Below, piece after piece: positions 3,906 to 53,004 of a stretch of 64,000 bases of DNA. The stretch comes from Candidatus Omnitrophota bacterium (GTDB lineage: Bacteria > Omnitrophota > Omnitrophia > Omnitrophales > Aquincolibacteriaceae), in assembly GCA_041674705.1 (NCBI GenBank), contig JBAYVF010000001.1, forward strand, positions 1,238 to 65,237. The letters run 5' to 3'. A program made the translations under genes and the position numbers. A model generated the notes under the pieces. It saw nothing but the letters and a program-made list of their open reading frames with translations. It had not been told where the DNA came from and did no database searches. The stretch's first letter is position 1. Every line of letters begins with the position of its first letter.

Positions 3906-4212
3906 AATAAAGTGATGTGCCTGTCCTGTCGAAGCGAAGGTGACGATCCCCGGAATTCAAGCAGCCGATTTCCCCTTTAAATTTTAAAGAGCATCACACT
4001 ATTAGTCTGATGCTCTGTTAAAACGGCATCAAATTCGCTGCAAACAGCACAGGAGGGGAGGGTGCAAATTAGCACAGAAGAGATTCTACGCAAAAGCAAT
4101 ACAACTGTAGGTGTCTGCCGATGAAAGTGCCTTTTCAGCTCTTAGAGGTGTATTATCTAATCAGTCGCAACTTTACCTAATGACTACGCCATGCCATCAA
4201 TTAGGATACTTA

Positions 4213-4240
4213 TTGACATGTTGTGCAAATGTTATACAAT
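4213..4240 (+). promoter_or_regulatory. Sigma70-type promoter of the AT-rich island (TTGACA-16 nt-TACAAT)
   Basis: ttgaca at 4213-4218 and tacaat at 4235-4240, about 85 nt upstream of the ATG at 4326. Confidence 0.55.
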
Positions 4241-4250
4241 GCTCTTTGGT

Positions 4251-4300
4251 TAGACGTAGGTAGACACTGGTAGACCTAGGTAGATATAGATAGATGAAAT
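4251..4300 (+). promoter_or_regulatory. Five 10-bp-phased TAGAY direct repeats (putative operator or iteron-like array)
   Basis: tagacgtagg / tagacactgg / tagacctagg / tagatataga / tagatgaaat, starting 11 nt after the -10 box and ending 25 nt before the start codon of the HTH-containing gene. Confidence 0.6.
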
Positions 4301-4325
4301 TGAAAACTAATCAGAAAGAGTAATT

Positions 4326-6485: not shown

Positions 6486-7427
6486 ATGTCGGCACAGTGT
6501 CCTTTCTGCAAAAAAGAACCGGATAAGATAACGCCTTTTACGAACAGGGATTGCTCAACGATTTTTTGTAAACGATGCGGAGAGTTTGCAATAACAGGCT
6601 CATTGTTATCTTCTTATGCTGACTTGGAAGAGAAAAGTCATTTGTTTTCTGGTGTTCTTCGTTGGAGAAAAGAGGGAGGTCTTAAAAGCGGAGAAATTTT
6701 AACTTCGCATACAATCAAAGAGATTTTGCAGAGCACAGAAATTCCTCAAAAAATCCCTGAAAAAATCGATAGGCTTATTTATTATATCGGTCTTAACAGC
6801 CCTACCTTCGGCGCTTCTGTCTCAATAAAGCCAGACGACGATTACTCCTTAACTTTTTCTCCTTCCGAAGACGAGCTTCACGAAATCCTTTTATTTCTGG
6901 AGAGAGATAGGCTCATCGAGCCAGCTATGGATTTTATGGGTAATGTTGCAGCCATCGAGACGCAATTATCTTACGAGGAAATGGTTCAATGCAAATTTAC
7001 AATGCAAGGGTGGAAGAGGTTTTACGAGTTGGAAAGAAAAGGCGTAGATTCAAAGCAATGTTTTGTAGCGATGAATTTTGATAATGAATTTGATTCTGCA
7101 TATCAAAAAATTAGTGAAGCTATAGAAGATTGCGGATTTAAAGCTTACAGAACGAAAGGATTTTCAATAGACGATGTCAACGACCTTATTATCGCGGGTA
7201 TTAAAGAAAGCGCTTTTGTCGTAGCCGACTTTACGGGGCAGAAGCCGGGTGTTTATTTTGAGGCTGGGTTTGCTCGTGGATTAGGGAAAAAGGTTATTTG
7301 GACATGTAGGGAGGAAGAGAAAGACAAGTTGCATTTTGATACGCGACAATTTAATCACATCTTGTGGAAAGACGTTGAAGAGTTAAAGAGCAAACTACAA
7401 ACAAGTATTCGAGCCAATATAATTTGA
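6486..7427 (+). CDS. Zinc-ribbon protein with a C-terminal nucleoside 2-deoxyribosyltransferase/TIR-like Rossmannoid domain
   Basis: N-terminal CPFC...CKRC. C-terminal CFVAMNFDNEF...AFVVADFTGQKPGVYFEAGFARGLGKKVIWTC...LHFDTRQFNHILW, matching the FVxMxF / ADxT / NVxxExGxAxGxGK / FD pattern of NDT-like (TIR-like) domains. Confidence 0.6.
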   Translation: MSAQCPFCKKEPDKITPFTNRDCSTIFCKRCGEFAITGSLLSSYADLEEKSHLFSGVLRWRKEGGLKSGEILTSHTIKEILQSTEIPQKIPEKIDRLIYYIGLNSPTFGASVSIKPDDDYSLTFSPSEDELHEILLFLERDRLIEPAMDFMGNVAAIETQLSYEEMVQCKFTMQGWKRFYELERKGVDSKQCFVAMNFDNEFDSAYQKISEAIEDCGFKAYRTKGFSIDDVNDLIIAGIKESAFVVADFTGQKPGVYFEAGFARGLGKKVIWTCREEEKDKLHFDTRQFNHILWKDVEELKSKLQTSIRANII

Positions 7428-17572: not shown

Positions 17573-17584
17573 ATACTTTCCGCT

Positions 17585-17652
17585 GTCATTCCCGCATGTA
17601 TTAAGCGGGAATCCATGTTTTTGGATCCCCGATTTAAGCATTCGGGGATGAC
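17585..17652. repeat. Nested-hairpin repeat element, copy a (GTCATTCCCGC...GCGGGAATCC...GGATCCCCGA...TCGGGGATGAC)
   Basis: Same architecture and core words as the copies at 21806-21866 and 52705-52770. Confidence 0.8.
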
Positions 17653-17658
17653 ATTTTT

Positions 17659-19290
17659 TTATTCGATGCTTCCCGAATAATTCGAGGATTTTTTCTTATC
17701 CTCATCCTTCTTTTCCTTGGGTTTTTCCGCGATCACGCATTCGGTCGTGAGGATGAGCCCGGCGATCGAGCAGGCATTCTCCACCGCGATGCGAACGACT
17801 TTGGCGGGGTCAATGACCTTGTCTTCGACGAGGTCGCTGTACTCGCAAGTCTGAGCGTTGAATCCGAATGCGCCCTTGCCCTCAAGGATCTTTTTCACAA
17901 CGACCGATCCATCCACGCCGGCGTTGTGGGCGATCTTGCGGGCCGGTTCCTGAAGCGCGCGACGAACGATCTGGACGCCGGTAGCTTCATCGCCTGAGGA
18001 CTTCAGATCATCCAGCGAGGCAATAGAACGCAAAAGAGCGACGCCGCCGCCCGGGACGATGCCTTCTTCGATGGCCGCACGGGTCGCGTGCAAAGCGTCC
18101 TCGATACGGGCCTTCATCTCTTTCATCTCGACTTCGGTGGCCGCGCCAACCTTCACAACAGCGACGCCGCCGGAAAGTTTCGCGAGACGTTCCTTAAGCT
18201 TTTCTTTGTCATACTCCGAGTCGGAGCGTTCGATCTCCGCCTTGATCTGATCGCAGCGTCCCTTGATGTCCTTCTGGGTGCCGGCGCTTCCGACGATCGT
18301 GGTGTTGTCCTTGTCGATCACCACGCGCTGGGCCGTGCCGAGCATCTCAAGGTCCACGTTCTCGAGTTTCACACCGAGATCTTCGGAGATGAACTTGCCT
18401 TTGGTGATGATCGCGATATCTTCCATCAGGGCCTTGCGGCGATCCCCGAATCCGGGGGCCTTCACGGCCGCGATCTGAAGCACGCCGCGGATCTTGTTCA
18501 CCACCAAGGTGGCGAGCGCTTCACCTTCGATATCTTCCGAGATAATGAGAAGGGGCTTACCGAGGCGCGCCACTTTCTCCAGGACAGGGACGAGATCCTT
18601 TACGGAACTGACTTTTTTCTCGTAAAGCAGGATGTAAGGTTCCTTCAAGACCACTTCCATCCGCTCGGCATCGGTCACAAAATAAGGTGACAAATAGCCG
18701 CGGTCGAATTGCATGCCTTCGACGACGTCGAGCTCGGTCTTGAGGCCTTTGGCTTCTTCAACCGTGATCACGCCTTCTTTGCCGACTTTTTCCAGGGCAT
18801 CCGCCAGAAGCTGGCCGATACTCTGGTCGTTATTGGCGCTGATGGCGCCGACGGCGGTGATGTCTTCTTTGCCCTTGACGGCCTTGGACATTTTCTTGAT
18901 GGTTTCCACGATCTTGGCCGAGGCTTTGTCGATCCCGCGTTTCAGGGCCATGGGATTGGCGCCGGCGGTGACGTTCTTGAGGCCTTCGGACACGATGGAT
19001 TGGGCCAGGACCGTTGCGGTCGTGGTGCCGTCCCCGGCGTTATCCGAGGTTTTTTCCGCGACTTCACGGACCATTTGGGCGCCCATATTTTCATACGGGT
19101 CCTTCAAGTCAATTTCTTTGGCGACCGTGACGCCGTCCTTGGTGACGAGCGGCGCGCCGAACTTTTTATCGATCACCACATTGCGGCCGCGGGGACCGAG
19201 CGTGACGCTGACAGCCCTTGCGAGGATGTCGACGCCGCGTTTGATCTTCTGGCGCGCTTCTTCTGAATACGAGATAAGTTTTGCCATCAC
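17659..19290 (-). CDS. groEL: Chaperonin GroEL (paralog 1, no GGM tail)
   Basis: Cpn60 signatures [14 protein letters not shown] and [19 protein letters not shown]. The C-terminus is [21 protein letters not shown]. Lies immediately downstream of groES. Confidence 0.95.
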
Positions 19291-19308
19291 TAACTCCTTT
19301 GGTTAATT

Positions 19309-19420
19309 TCCAATAACCAAGATACAAGCACCAATCAAATTCCAATCACCAAGAACCAATTATTTTGAAATTTTGTCATTGGGATTTGTTTGGTTATTGT
19401 TTCTTGTGATTTGGTTATTT
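19309..19420. repeat. Long imperfect palindrome, CCAA/TTGG word family, copy 1
   Basis: Left arm tccaataaccaagatacaagcaccaatcaaattccaatcaccaagaaccaat, right arm attgggatttgtttggttattgtttcttgtgatttggttatt. Lies in the groES-groEL1 spacer. Confidence 0.8.
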
Positions 19421-19711
19421 TTCTGATTCGTAAACTGCTAAAATTTCGCTCTCTTTGACGATCTTGTGCTTTGCGCCATCGATCAAGATGTCGTCGCCGG
19501 AATATTTCCCGAAGAGCACGCGATCGCCTTTTTTGACTTCAATAGGCTGGACTTTGCCGGATTCGAGCACTTTCCCCGTGCCGACCGCGATCACCTTGCC
19601 TTCGGTCTTCTCTTCTTTCGCGGTATCCGGGAGGATGATGCCGCCCTTGGTCTTTGCTTCCGCTTCAAGCACTTCCACAAGCACTCTGTCTGCTAACGGT
19701 CTGACTTTCAT
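19415..19711 (-). CDS. groES: Co-chaperonin GroES
   Basis: MKVRPLADRVLV...GGIILPDTAKEK...GKVIAVG with SD AAAGGAG. The track ORF is extended 25 codons upstream without support. Confidence 0.93.
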   Translation of the reverse strand: MKVRPLADRVLVEVLEAEAKTKGGIILPDTAKEEKTEGKVIAVGTGKVLESGKVQPIEVKKGDRVLFGKYSGDDILIDGAKHKIVKESEILAVYESEK

Positions 19712-19735
19712 TTTGGATTCTCCTTTAATGAGCAC

Positions 19736-19767
19736 GTGACTTACGGAACGAAGTGTGCGTAAGTCAC
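19736..19767 (-). promoter_or_regulatory. Perfect 10-bp inverted repeat GTGACTTACG-N12-CGTAAGTCAC upstream of groES
   Basis: The arms extend imperfectly to about 14 bp. The repeat ends about 8 nt upstream of the groES SD on the minus strand. Not a CIRCE sequence. Confidence 0.5.
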
Positions 19768-19778
19768 TGTGCGAATTG

Positions 19779-20045
19779 AACCCCACACCCAGCCTTAGCT
19801 TAAGGACCGCTTGATCCGCTGCTTTAAGGCCGTCAGTGCTTGGGCATAATGTTTAAATCTTCTCTCACGATCCCTCGCATCGGCTTCAGACATGTAAGCT
19901 TCATAATACTTAAGCTCCCATGATCCTTTGGCCTGGTGCTCGGTCATTCTCCTTTTCAGGTTATTGCTATACCCGTAGTACAGGTCTTGAGTTTTTTTGT
20001 TTTTTAAAACGTATACGTAATACATGTCAAGCTGGGTGTGGGGTT
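19779..20045 (-). mobile_element. GIY-YIG ORF cassette bounded by a perfect 15-bp inverted repeat (possible small mobile or selfish insert)
   Basis: aaccccacacccagc (19779-19793) and gctgggtgtggggtt (20031-20045) bracket the 231-bp ORF within 2-5 nt of its stop and start codons. Confidence 0.35.
19795..20025 (-). CDS. GIY-YIG nuclease family protein (small, stand-alone)
   Basis: MYYVYVLKNKKTQDLYYGYSNNLKRRMTEH...E: GIY/YIG-type beta strands plus conserved Arg and Glu spacing. No obvious SD upstream. Confidence 0.7.
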   Translation of the reverse strand: MYYVYVLKNKKTQDLYYGYSNNLKRRMTEHQAKGSWELKYYEAYMSEADARDRERRFKHYAQALTALKQRIKRSLS

Positions 20046-20103
20046 AATTCGGACTTATCACTTAGCTCTCCGCCGGTAGCGGATTCGCTAAGTGATGTCC
20101 TCA

Positions 20104-21951
<1,848 letters not shown>

Positions 21952-51891: not shown

Positions 51892-53004
51892 ATGAAACTC
51901 TCCGATCTCGATTACCCGCTTCCCAAGGGAAAAATAGCGCTTTTTCCAACTCCCAAAAGAACGGACGCGAAGCTTTTGTGCGTGGATAAAAAAAACGGCG
52001 CTTGCACCCACCGTATCTTCAGCGATCTTCCGGAACTTTTGAAGCCGACGGATCTGTTGGTGCTCAATGACACCAAAGTCCTGCCGGCGCGGCTTTTCGG
52101 CCAAAAAGCGACCGGGGGTAAGATCGAAGCTCTTTTGCTCAAAGAGATTGATAAAGATACATGGGAAGCATTGCTCAAACCCGGCGGCCGCGTGGCGGAT
52201 GGAAGTATTCTCACCTTCTCTCAAAACGGGATAACGCTTGAAGCGAAGATCCTGAGCAATCCCGTTCCTAATACCGGAAAACGCTGGCTTCAGTTTCAGG
52301 GTTCCGGCATGAAAGAAAAGCTGCACAAACTTGGGCACATCCCACTTCCTCCCTATATTGACCGACCGGACCAACCCGCGGACCATGAAACCTACCAGAC
52401 AGTTTTCGCGAAAGAAGAAGGCGCTGTGGCGGCGCCGACGGCAGGGCTTCATTTTGACAAGCCGCTTCTTGAAAAACTTTCCCGGATGGGTGTCGAGATC
52501 GCACACGTGACGCTTCACGTGAGCTACGGGACATTTCAACCGATCACGGTGGAGCCTATTGAAGAGCACAAAATGTTCGAGGAAGAATACGAGATCACGG
52601 AAGAAACTGCGAAAAAGATCAACGCGGCGAAACGCGCCGGGCGGCGCGTCATTGTGTGCGGTACGACCTGCGTCCGGGCCTTGGAATCGGCCGTCGCTAC
52701 AACTGTCATCCCCGCGAAAGCGGGGATCCAGAATGAAAATGGATTCCCGATAAAAGCATTCGGGAATGACAAATTATTAGGGGTGCTTCAACCCGGCAAA
52801 GGGAAGACTTCCATTTTCATTTATCCGCCGTATGATTTCAAGATCGTGGACGGGTTGATCACGAACTTCCATATGCCGAAGAGCACCCTTCTTGCCATGG
52901 TCTCGGCATTTTTAGGTTATGAAAAGCTCATGGCCGCGTATAATACCGCTCTGAAAGAAGATTATCGGTTCGCGTCGTATGGCGATGCCATGCTGATTTC
53001 GTAA
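51892..53004 (+). CDS. queA: S-adenosylmethionine:tRNA ribosyltransferase-isomerase, with an in-frame repeat insertion
   Basis: LSDLDYPLP, VLPARL, LPPYI, TAGLHF, CGTTCVRALES, NFHMPKSTLL. The segment [22 protein letters not shown] is encoded by the nested-hairpin element. Confidence 0.9.
   Translation: MKLSDLDYPLPKGKIALFPTPKRTDAKLLCVDKKNGACTHRIFSDLPELLKPTDLLVLNDTKVLPARLFGQKATGGKIEALLLKEIDKDTWEALLKPGGRVADGSILTFSQNGITLEAKILSNPVPNTGKRWLQFQGSGMKEKLHKLGHIPLPPYIDRPDQPADHETYQTVFAKEEGAVAAPTAGLHFDKPLLEKLSRMGVEIAHVTLHVSYGTFQPITVEPIEEHKMFEEEYEITEETAKKINAAKRAGRRVIVCGTTCVRALESAVATTVIPAKAGIQNENGFPIKAFGNDKLLGVLQPGKGKTSIFIYPPYDFKIVDGLITNFHMPKSTLLAMVSAFLGYEKLMAAYNTALKEDYRFASYGDAMLIS
52705..52770. repeat. Nested-hairpin repeat element, copy c (inside queA)
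   Basis: gtcatccccgcgaaagcggggatccagaatgaaaatggattcccgataaaagcattcgggaatgac. Confidence 0.85.

Follow-up and report, generated by a model that had tools for sequence, protein, structure and literature searches.

Composition of the cassette between groEL1 and groES

The window analysed here is a 64,000-nt stretch of contig JBAYVF010000001.1 from a Candidatus Omnitrophota bacterium, and it was compared with related loci from other genomes, which carry L numbers (L001, L004 etc.). Within its groE operon, an exact 15-nt inverted repeat encloses an open reading frame (ORF) for a 76-aa GIY-YIG nuclease, located on the minus strand between groEL1 and groES. The repeat, AACCCCACACCCAGC, occurred exactly twice in the window, at 19779-19793 (+) and 20031-20045 (-), and the next-best matches had three mismatches each. 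An earlier note, made from the sequence alone, had described this perfect repeat around the ORF, and both the exact pair and its uniqueness in the window bear the description out. In the direction of transcription, the order is groEL1 (20104-21765), the cassette, groES (19415-19711) and groEL2 (17659-19287), all on the minus strand, on which the features of the cassette are also read.

The nuclease ORF occupies 19795-20025. The left inner arm, GAATTAACCCCACACCCAGC (20031-20050, exact core 20031-20045), ends 5 nt before its ATG, the distance first reported, and the right inner arm, GCTGGGTGTGGGGTTCAATTC (19773-19793, exact core 19779-19793), starts 1 nt past the stop codon rather than the 2 nt initially given. 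Allowing one bulge, the inner arms reach 20-21 nt, and the GGGGTT(C/T)AATTC of the right arm was kept in all Omnitrophota-type copies. The unit had been taken as a 267-bp cassette; that core is real, but the palindrome is only the inner layer of a nested composite cassette of 379 bp (19727-20105), which includes outer hairpins and termini and has a length of 371-380 bp in eight copies elsewhere. From AATGAGG to CTCATT, it consists of terminus, hairpin, arm, ORF, arm, hairpin and terminus, and each end is an inverted copy of the other.

The left terminus AATGAGG (20099-20105) has its first two bases within the groEL1 stop codon TAA (20104-20106). In the alignment, AATGA(A/G/C)G was kept at the left end in nearly all Omnitrophota-type copies, and in the predicted fold this terminus pairs with the right terminus CTCATT (19727-19732), which was kept in 10 of 11 aligned copies. 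The left outer hairpin (20057-20096) has a 10-bp stem (ATCACTTAGC/GCTAAGTGAT) and a 20-nt loop containing a nested stem, a type of hairpin also present in L001 and L171. The right outer hairpin (19732-19772) combines a lower stem, GCAC/GTGC, with a 10-bp stem (GTGACTTACG/CGTAAGTCAC) and a 12-nt loop that, in reverse complement, matches the left-hairpin loop of other copies. Outside the cassette, the ribosome-binding region of groES, AAAGGAGAATCCAAA (19712-19726), forms the host target flank. Because AGGAGATCCGAAAATG also precedes groES in element-free relatives, the Shine-Dalgarno (SD) sequence before groES is host sequence, and we rejected the idea that the element supplies it.

As to the host operon, groEL1 and groEL2 are paralogues of about 66% identity around a single groES (17659-21765), and groEL1 lacks an upstream groES of its own. 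This arrangement of two groEL genes and one groES was kept across the whole sampled clade (L001, L090-L125).

A minimal single-domain nuclease under purifying selection

The 76-aa protein matched the Pfam GIY-YIG profile over its curated cut-off (E = 2.2e-9, residues 1-59), and its gene was the only GIY-YIG ORF in the window. Tyr3/5, Tyr16, Gly18, Arg26, His30, Glu42 and Glu54 were invariant in 15 homologues with 51-97% identity to the window protein, while relatives of 81-86 aa carried 7-10 additional residues between the catalytic Tyr (Y5, Y16) and Glu (E54). The ratio of nonsynonymous to synonymous substitution rates (dN/dS) was 0.07-0.16 in unsaturated pairs, and comparison of the sequences indicates that the ORF is under purifying selection. 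An AlphaFold2 (AF2) model (pLDDT 93) predicted one compact beta-beta-alpha-beta-alpha GIY-YIG core, for which the nearest solved structures were the UPF0213 proteins 1zg2 and 1ywl, followed by the I-TevI catalytic domain. The nearest PDB sequences were likewise UPF0213 proteins (E = 1.5e-6). The group I intron endonuclease model TIGR01453 scored 17.7 bits against a cut-off of 56, and NCBIfam held no specific model for the protein.

According to Pfam and the AF2 model, the protein consists of the catalytic domain only, with no separate DNA-binding domain. The cassette encodes no transposase of a known class (DDE, HUH, serine or tyrosine recombinase), the GIY-YIG nuclease being its sole ORF. PADLOC and PHROGs returned no match, and a plasmid search for a genuine Ssn relative returned weak YazA/UPF0213 matches only. 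Homologues came from metagenome bins of Omnitrophota and Patescibacteria, and in a library of 1.8 billion proteins the protein profile retrieved 959 clusters at E < 1e-10, almost all of 74-110 aa. A look-up of the exact 76-aa sequence returned no record; the public gene call for the ORF is a 50-aa truncation starting from Met27, and gene callers in general probably miss the true, SD-less start.

Conserved structure of the repeats

Folded as one strand, the 379-bp cassette is predicted to form a four-way junction made of the termini stem, the left hairpin, the arm stem enclosing the ORF and the right hairpin. The RNA fold energy was -145 kcal/mol, compared with -99 +/- 5 in shuffled sequences (z = -8.6). 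Over ten full copies, the inner stem was 98% paired and both sides had changed in 6 of its 15 core pairs; in the left hairpin, both sides had changed across copies in 6 of the 9 stem pairs. The covariation values of these two stems were reached by 0 of 500 shuffles, and pairing fell to 28-45% when partners were slid by 1-3 columns. In the right hairpin, 11 of 14 pairs had changed on both sides, with 96% of cells paired, none of 152 cells being G-U, and 0 of 500 shuffles equalling it. The arm core ACCCCACACCCAG was identical among copies whose ORFs are saturated at synonymous sites, and thus the arms are held by selection. A covariance model built from eleven right ends gave 42 matches in 324 kb of related loci, and, on the opposite strand, it matched the left ends along its full length of 72 positions, so that the ends of the cassette are true terminal inverted repeats.

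The association of repeat and gene extends well beyond the window. Among 83 homologous loci from several phyla, including Omnitrophota and Patescibacteria, an inverted repeat scoring at least 10 within 60 nt of the ORF was found in 69%, compared with 0.2% of shuffled flanks, and the downstream arm began no more than 5 nt past the stop codon in 50 of the 83. The bracketing is not due to chance. Arm sequences varied by lineage (ACCCCACACC, ACCCCGCAC, ACCCAGCAC, ACCGAGCAC), with a C-rich core kept. Arms lacking the gene recurred nearby in about 20 loci, either as closed hairpins (e.g. CCCCGCCCTTTCctagGAAAGGGCGGGG) or as 40-130-nt pairs, and in Patescibacteria closed hairpins of the same arms lay near ORF copies. 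The simplest reading of these sequences would be that the gene occupies the loop position of one member of a palindromic-repeat family. Within L011, the ORF-bearing cassette (3932-4302) has CCCCACGCCCAGC arms and an ORF-less cassette (1067-1279) has arms of the ACCCAGCACTAATT subtype (left arm here ACTCAGCACTAATT); two arm subfamilies therefore occur in one genome.

Several known structured elements were considered for these repeats and rejected. Rfam at permissive E-values returned only two sub-threshold plant miRNA models, both in the neighbouring spacer. The sequence GGGGTTCAATTC suggested the T-arm of a tRNA-like element; its flanking bases form no T-stem, and a single viral-contig match was a real phage tRNA and unrelated. 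The consensus of the CIRCE heat-shock operator is TTAGCACTC-N9-GAGTGCTAA, which does not fit the stems; these change by compensation and travel into non-heat-shock operons.

Empty sites and copies at other loci

A GroES search provided 36 metagenomic contigs of the same clade, at least 25 of which have groEL1 upstream of groES. A GIY-YIG match was found in none of the at least 25 contigs that keep the groEL1-groES-groEL2 operon. In the nearest element-free contigs, GroEL1 was 95-96%, GroES 91-94% and GroEL2 about 96% (up to 96.5%) identical to the window proteins, and the groEL1-groES gap was a 40-60-nt AT-rich spacer ending in a native AGGAG. Proteins of 97% and 89% identity were encoded at the same groEL1|groES position with the same arms. 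The synonymous divergence (dS) of groEL2 from the window was 0.55-0.59 for the element-free L090 and L091, 0.53 for the element-bearing L004 and 1.05 for the element-bearing L001. The distribution is therefore patchy, with element-free relatives as close to the window as L004 and closer than L001.

Cassettes were also present at unrelated operon gaps. L006 encodes a 71% identical protein between rpsD and rpoA, with arms ACCCCACACCCAG / GGGTGTGGGGTTCAATTC, the same kind of hairpin and the same termini. Others lay in icd|mdh (L011), gcvT|gcvH (L012), infC|rpmI (L033) and pyrB|pyrC (L172), and further copies of 371-380 bp were found downstream of rho and upstream of a polyprenyl synthase gene. 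As icd and mdh overlap by four bases in L006, the gap filled in L011 is empty in another genome. In the metagenome-assembled genome (MAG) GCA_022703605.1 (L171), which has the alr-birA-coaX-groEL1-groES-groEL2 synteny of the window, a full cassette lies in groES|groEL2, and the groEL1|groES gap retains a stem remnant only. One MAG carries two copies in different contexts with 95% identical ORFs (L013 and L014), and several genomes hold multiple copies (two each in L001, L011 and L059; three ORF-less ones in L118), compared with one in the 64-kb window. In the Omnitrophota clade, every copy is co-oriented with both neighbours. Since close relatives lack the cassette or carry it elsewhere, this small pair of nuclease and hairpin is mobile.

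These data also bear on whether the gene is a free-standing homing endonuclease of the seg type, which would cut an element-free groE allele as double-stranded DNA and spread only through homologous flanks. Several features agree with it: the catalytic domain is of the GIY-YIG type, the cassette lacks a promoter and lies between conserved genes, its presence is polymorphic at one homologous site, and the conversion tract is short and does not extend beyond the element. The seg genes of T-even phages share the GIY-YIG core and short conversion tracts (Edgell et al. 2010, PMC2988022). Those enzymes, however, are two-domain proteins that cut double-stranded DNA and spread only between homologous genomes (PMC2988022). 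The 76-aa protein lacks the DNA-binding domain that seg and I-TevI enzymes have, and non-homologous sites are occupied by cassettes with their own ends and with target duplications, so it is not a seg-type homing endonuclease. Seg genes have no terminal repeats, target duplications or dispersed ORF-less copies, and the dispersed ORF-less hairpins seen here are foreign to such homing. Overall, we regard a seg-type origin as distinctly unlikely.

Two bins held further bracketed genes. In a Saccharibacteria bin (L018, 2968-4587), a group-1 glycosyltransferase gene is interrupted by a bracketed GIY-YIG gene and divided into two ORFs, whose products match Pfam profile positions 12-102 and 107-171. 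In a Patescibacteria bin (L086, 301-620), a second, decayed bracketed GIY-YIG gene with an in-frame stop lies 3.4 kb from an intact copy, with more solo arms nearby.

Target duplications, ORF-less copies and module exchange

The empty groES|groEL2 junction reads gagAAGGAGTAAccccATG in five relatives. In L001, the corresponding site (L001b) reads gagAAGGAGTGA, an ORF-less cassette and then AAGGAGTAAaaccATG, giving a 9-bp target duplication that includes a relic of the groES stop codon behind the insert. In L014, the 11-bp sequence AAAAAGGAGAT lies on either side of the cassette. The duplications of both copies (9-11 bp) contain the ribosome-binding site, and partial duplications were seen in L010 and L012.

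Copies without the ORF were found in L001 (L001b, 6609-6816), L011 (1067-1279), L059 (6250-6365), L102, L118 (three) and L109. The copy in L059, from Nitrospira, retains only the first and last ORF codons. In half-cassettes, inner arms that close on a loop of 3-9 nt come after an outer hairpin; three were found in L118 and one in L102 (GAATTAACCCCGCaaaGCGGGGTTAAT), the latter exactly where the window carries its cassette.

Between the window and L004, dS was 0.07 for the ORF, compared with 0.48 for groES and 0.53 for groEL2; the ORF showed about 4 synonymous differences where about 19 were expected (P about 1e-6). The 97-98% identical tract was bounded by the inner arms. The left end of the window cassette was 89% identical to that of L001 and 66% to that of L004, and the right ends of L004 and L001 were 86% identical to each other and 59% to that of the window. 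These sequence comparisons show that the arm-ORF-arm module was recently exchanged between lineages, while the outer ends tell different histories.

The ORF could instead be cargo in a hairpin cassette moved by an unrelated transposase encoded elsewhere, in the manner of a miniature inverted-repeat transposable element (MITE). ORF-less copies are common, GIY-YIG enzymes are not known transposases, and the target duplications suggest a conventional transposase. Yet the recently exchanged tract is exactly arm-ORF-arm, the ORF is the sole coding capacity travelling with the repeats, and the bracket accompanies the ORF in most of the 83 loci across several phyla, with arms that co-vary with the protein lineage. 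A passenger gene is therefore very unlikely. MITEs such as Correia/NEMIS, RPE and ERIC share with the cassette terminal inverted repeats, small size, a strong predicted fold, target duplications and insertion in operon spacers that are transcribed by read-through; a classical MITE has no coding sequence and relies on a DDE transposase from elsewhere, whereas the cassette encodes its own nuclease and no DDE enzyme is implicated.

The mobile unit comprises 15-21-nt arms that are the halves of a palindrome, flanked by two hairpins and short terminal inverted repeats. The earlier note had proposed a miniature selfish element hitch-hiking in the operon, and the empty sites, occupied gaps elsewhere, ORF-less copies, duplications and module exchange all support it. 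Empty spacers, which it had recommended seeking, were found in at least 25 contigs, and further copies in relatives lay at unrelated operon gaps. Relatives have gene and repeat or neither, rather than a conserved gene without repeats at this site; nor is the repeat a generic palindrome with no link to the ORF, since a motif that is unique in the window travels with it. As for the placement inside a highly expressed chaperonin cluster, which had been taken to fit such an element, the targets are operon gaps generally, often at a ribosome-binding site, and not highly expressed clusters alone.

Expression context

Within the cassette, no promoter- or terminator-like site was found in the orientation of the gene. 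Ahead of groEL1 there is a promoter-like site (21981-21954) and behind groEL2 a terminator-like one (17554-17531), and the cassette is therefore most likely read through within the groE transcript. The ATG is not preceded by a purine-rich SD, as first reported, in the window or in 10 related copies, and none was found in any Omnitrophota copy. The predicted RNA fold places the ATG at the opening of the long arm stem. RNA structure at the start region limits translation of T4 homing endonucleases (PMC2988022), and by analogy low or conditional translation is a reasonable inference for the cassette gene. An mRNA stem occluding the start codon, which had been offered as an explanation of the repeat, is compatible with this fold; it would be an accessory feature, not the explanation.

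Coupling to a leader peptide was considered and rejected. A 25-codon ORF (20028-20103, minus strand) starts at a TAATG overlap with the groEL1 stop codon, extends across the left hairpin and arm, and terminates 1 nt short of the ATG of the nuclease gene, an arrangement that would permit coupling. It is not conserved, with an early stop in L004 and L006 and a shift out of frame in L001 and L171.

The same fold is relevant to whether the gene belongs ancestrally to the groE operon, with the inverted repeat serving as an mRNA stem that controls translation or processing. The arms are predicted to pair around an SD-less start, the gene has the same position in three lineages, and hairpin occlusion of homing-endonuclease starts is documented in T4 (PMC2988022). 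A resident gene is nevertheless contradicted by at least 25 close relatives that have the operon without it, by an identical bracket around homologues in ribosomal, tricarboxylic acid (TCA) cycle, glycine-cleavage and pyrimidine operons, by ORF-less copies and target duplications, and by an ORF dS seven-fold below that of the flanking genes. We consider this explanation highly improbable.

Comparison with Ssn nucleases and other palindrome-associated systems

The closest parallel is the Ssn family of single-domain GIY-YIG nucleases, typified by the 94-aa SsnA of Neisseria meningitidis (CDD cd10448; Chenal et al. 2025, PMC11893778). Ssn binds a hairpin repeat (NTS/SRM) and cuts beside it, only in single-stranded DNA (ssDNA); ssn genes are flanked on both sides by NTS/SRM, hundreds of gene-less repeat copies occur, and Y6A, Y17A and E64A abolish SsnA cleavage (PMC11893778). 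The authors noted that NTS-ssnA-NTS resembles an insertion sequence and compared it to REP/RAYT and IS200/IS605 (PMC11893778).

Both are single-domain GIY-YIG proteins of less than 100 aa. By published residue numbers, Y6/Y17/E64 of SsnA would correspond to Y5/Y16-17/E54 of the cassette protein, in which a loop of about 10 residues appears to be missing. Both genes have hairpin-forming repeats on either side, which are also dispersed without the gene (20-50 nt), and the closed hairpins TTAACCCCGC-aaa-GCGGGGTTAA (L102) and TTATCCCGCC-gctttc-GGGCGGGATTAA (L118) resemble the NTS core ATTCCCGCG-AAA-GCGGGAAT. The systems differ in that the cassette ORF lies inside a split palindrome, whereas ssnA lies between two complete hairpins, and in that the cassette is a defined 379-bp unit by virtue of its outer hairpin layer and terminal repeats. 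Mobility is only a hypothesis for Ssn, while comparative evidence is available here, and the host range covers Omnitrophota and Patescibacteria, compared with mainly Pseudomonadati for Ssn. The SRM motif HGTCWYN(0-2)YYVSBRHN(0-5)WNVSBRGN(0-2)RNCYNB, as a regular expression that recovers NTS controls, matched within 500 bp in 0 of the 83 loci. By analogy, the cassette may work like an Ssn-hairpin pair, and we liken it to that family without assigning it. New here is a nuclease-plus-hairpin variant with unusually clear mobility evidence and very small size.

The cassette also resembles REP/BIME-RAYT and IS200/IS605 systems as a very small unit with structured hairpin ends, many gene-less intergenic copies and a nuclease gene flanked by palindromes on which the enzyme presumably acts. 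RAYT and IS200/IS605 enzymes are HUH Y1 tyrosine enzymes with a covalent intermediate, in contrast to a hydrolytic GIY-YIG enzyme, and IS200/IS605 elements make no target duplication, compared with 9-11 bp in two copies here.

The parallel further raises the question of domestication. Neisseria SsnA/NTS has been proposed to limit recombination of incoming ssDNA, and an Ssn-type system could serve its host in such a way here, its distribution reflecting old mobility. Strong purifying selection on the ORF, the parallel with NTS-ssnA-NTS and the presence of canonical NTS-like repeats in the window are in line with this. Recent exchange of the ORF module (dS 0.07), the cassette's occurrence in different spacers of the same operon in two relatives, decayed copies (L086) and close relatives without any cassette are not, and favour an active selfish element over a fixed host function. 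Both readings could hold together, and we judge domestication unlikely.

Proposed mechanism and its limits

On balance, the locus probably holds a mobile, Ssn-like 379-bp cassette whose sole gene encodes a minimal GIY-YIG nuclease of a single domain and takes the place of a palindrome's loop. The cassette would be transcribed by read-through from the groE operon, and pairing of the arms in the transcript would bury the SD-less start codon and keep the nuclease scarce. By analogy with Ssn, the nuclease may recognise cognate hairpins in ssDNA and cut beside them. Host replication and repair could then copy the ORF into closed-hairpin copies, a form of homing into the loop; insertion into a closed inner hairpin would spread the gene and split the target site, and this would account for arms that abut the ORF. 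Whole cassettes would be placed at new ribosome-binding-site spacers with 9-11-bp duplications, for which a hydrolytic GIY-YIG enzyme alone would be insufficient. We infer these steps with support that decreases from the nuclease as agent, through an ssDNA-hairpin substrate and a closed-hairpin target, to placement at new spacers. The nuclease is put forward as the agent of mobility because the association of bracket and gene is family-wide and the exchanged tract is arm-ORF-arm.

A number of observations weigh against this interpretation. GIY-YIG enzymes hydrolyse DNA, and we know of none that performs strand transfer; insertion with a 9-11-bp duplication therefore needs an unexplained step or a helper. 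No clear target duplication was found in the window copy and none was visible in L171 or L006, and the window cassette fills the whole interval between the groEL1 stop codon and the SD. Gain and loss cannot be told apart from presence and absence alone, and remnants such as those in L100, L102 and spacer 1 of L171 indicate that decay occurs too. The specificity for ssDNA and the recognition of hairpins are both taken over from Ssn by analogy. The test of strand asymmetry was weak: both strands fold almost equally well as ssDNA (z = -7.8 sense, -7.1 antisense), and G-T and A-C mismatches stood at 34:17 family-wide (P = 0.02) beside 79 others, a weak signal. GC skew was positive on the plus strand throughout the window, dipping at minus-strand genes, and gives no replication-strand assignment. 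Finally, co-orientation in the wider family was about 70% per side, as expected for adjacent bacterial genes.

We hold it possible, with some reservation, that the cassette represents a novel class of autonomous mobile element, which at about 380 bp with a 76-aa protein would be among the smallest known. Its ORF would home to a palindromic ssDNA target of its own and enter the loop, the bracket would be a split recognition site that protects the carrier from self-cutting, and the enzyme would seed REP-like hairpins at ribosome-binding-site spacers in Omnitrophota and Patescibacteria. If so, Ssn-type nucleases would be selfish elements or descendants of such elements. The 2025 description left the role of Ssn outside Neisseria open (PMC11893778), and comparative evidence for mobility is now supplied by empty and filled sites, duplications, ORF-less derivatives, movement between spacers of one operon and an exchanged module. 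Mobility of small GIY-YIG and hairpin pairs thereby becomes testable with a 379-bp construct and a 76-residue protein. The locus and its relatives also explain a common annotation puzzle, the many tiny GIY-YIG genes wedged in conserved operons of Omnitrophota and Patescibacteria, and mark operon spacers in these phyla as hot spots for structured mobile DNA. As the cognate hairpins differ from the published motif, the family may also offer new site-specific nucleases.

Other structured repeats in and around the groE operon

Three canonical NTS/SRM-like repeats lie on the plus strand of the window (17583-17655, 21803-21870 and 52702-52770), at least 1.8 kb from the nuclease gene, where shuffled sequences gave an expectation of 0.47 matches per window. 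All three nearly match Neisseria NTS (TGTCATTCCCGCGAAAGCGGGAATCCAG), and behind each lies another hairpin in inverted orientation (TGGATCCCCGA...TCGGGGATGACA). The groE transcription unit is enclosed by two of these repeats, located respectively in the groEL1 leader and between the groEL2 stop codon and the terminator. No canonical ssnA gene was found in the window. Such repeats were absent from L001, and one was present in the groES|groEL2 spacer of L098.

The groES|groEL2 spacer of the window (19291-19414) contains an AT-rich palindromic element of about 120 nt (accaaatcacaagaaacaataaccaaa ... ttggttattggaaattaacc), which was found in the same spacer in L096 and in groEL1|groES in L171. This is apparently another mobile palindrome, unrelated to the cassette, with the same two gaps as its sites. 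In the more distant L103, L104 and L121, groEL1|groES holds a third palindromic insert (CCGTCATTGCGAGG...GAAGCAATC...GATTGCTTCG...CTCGCAATGAC). Structured repeats have a hot spot in the spacer directly behind the groEL1 stop codon.

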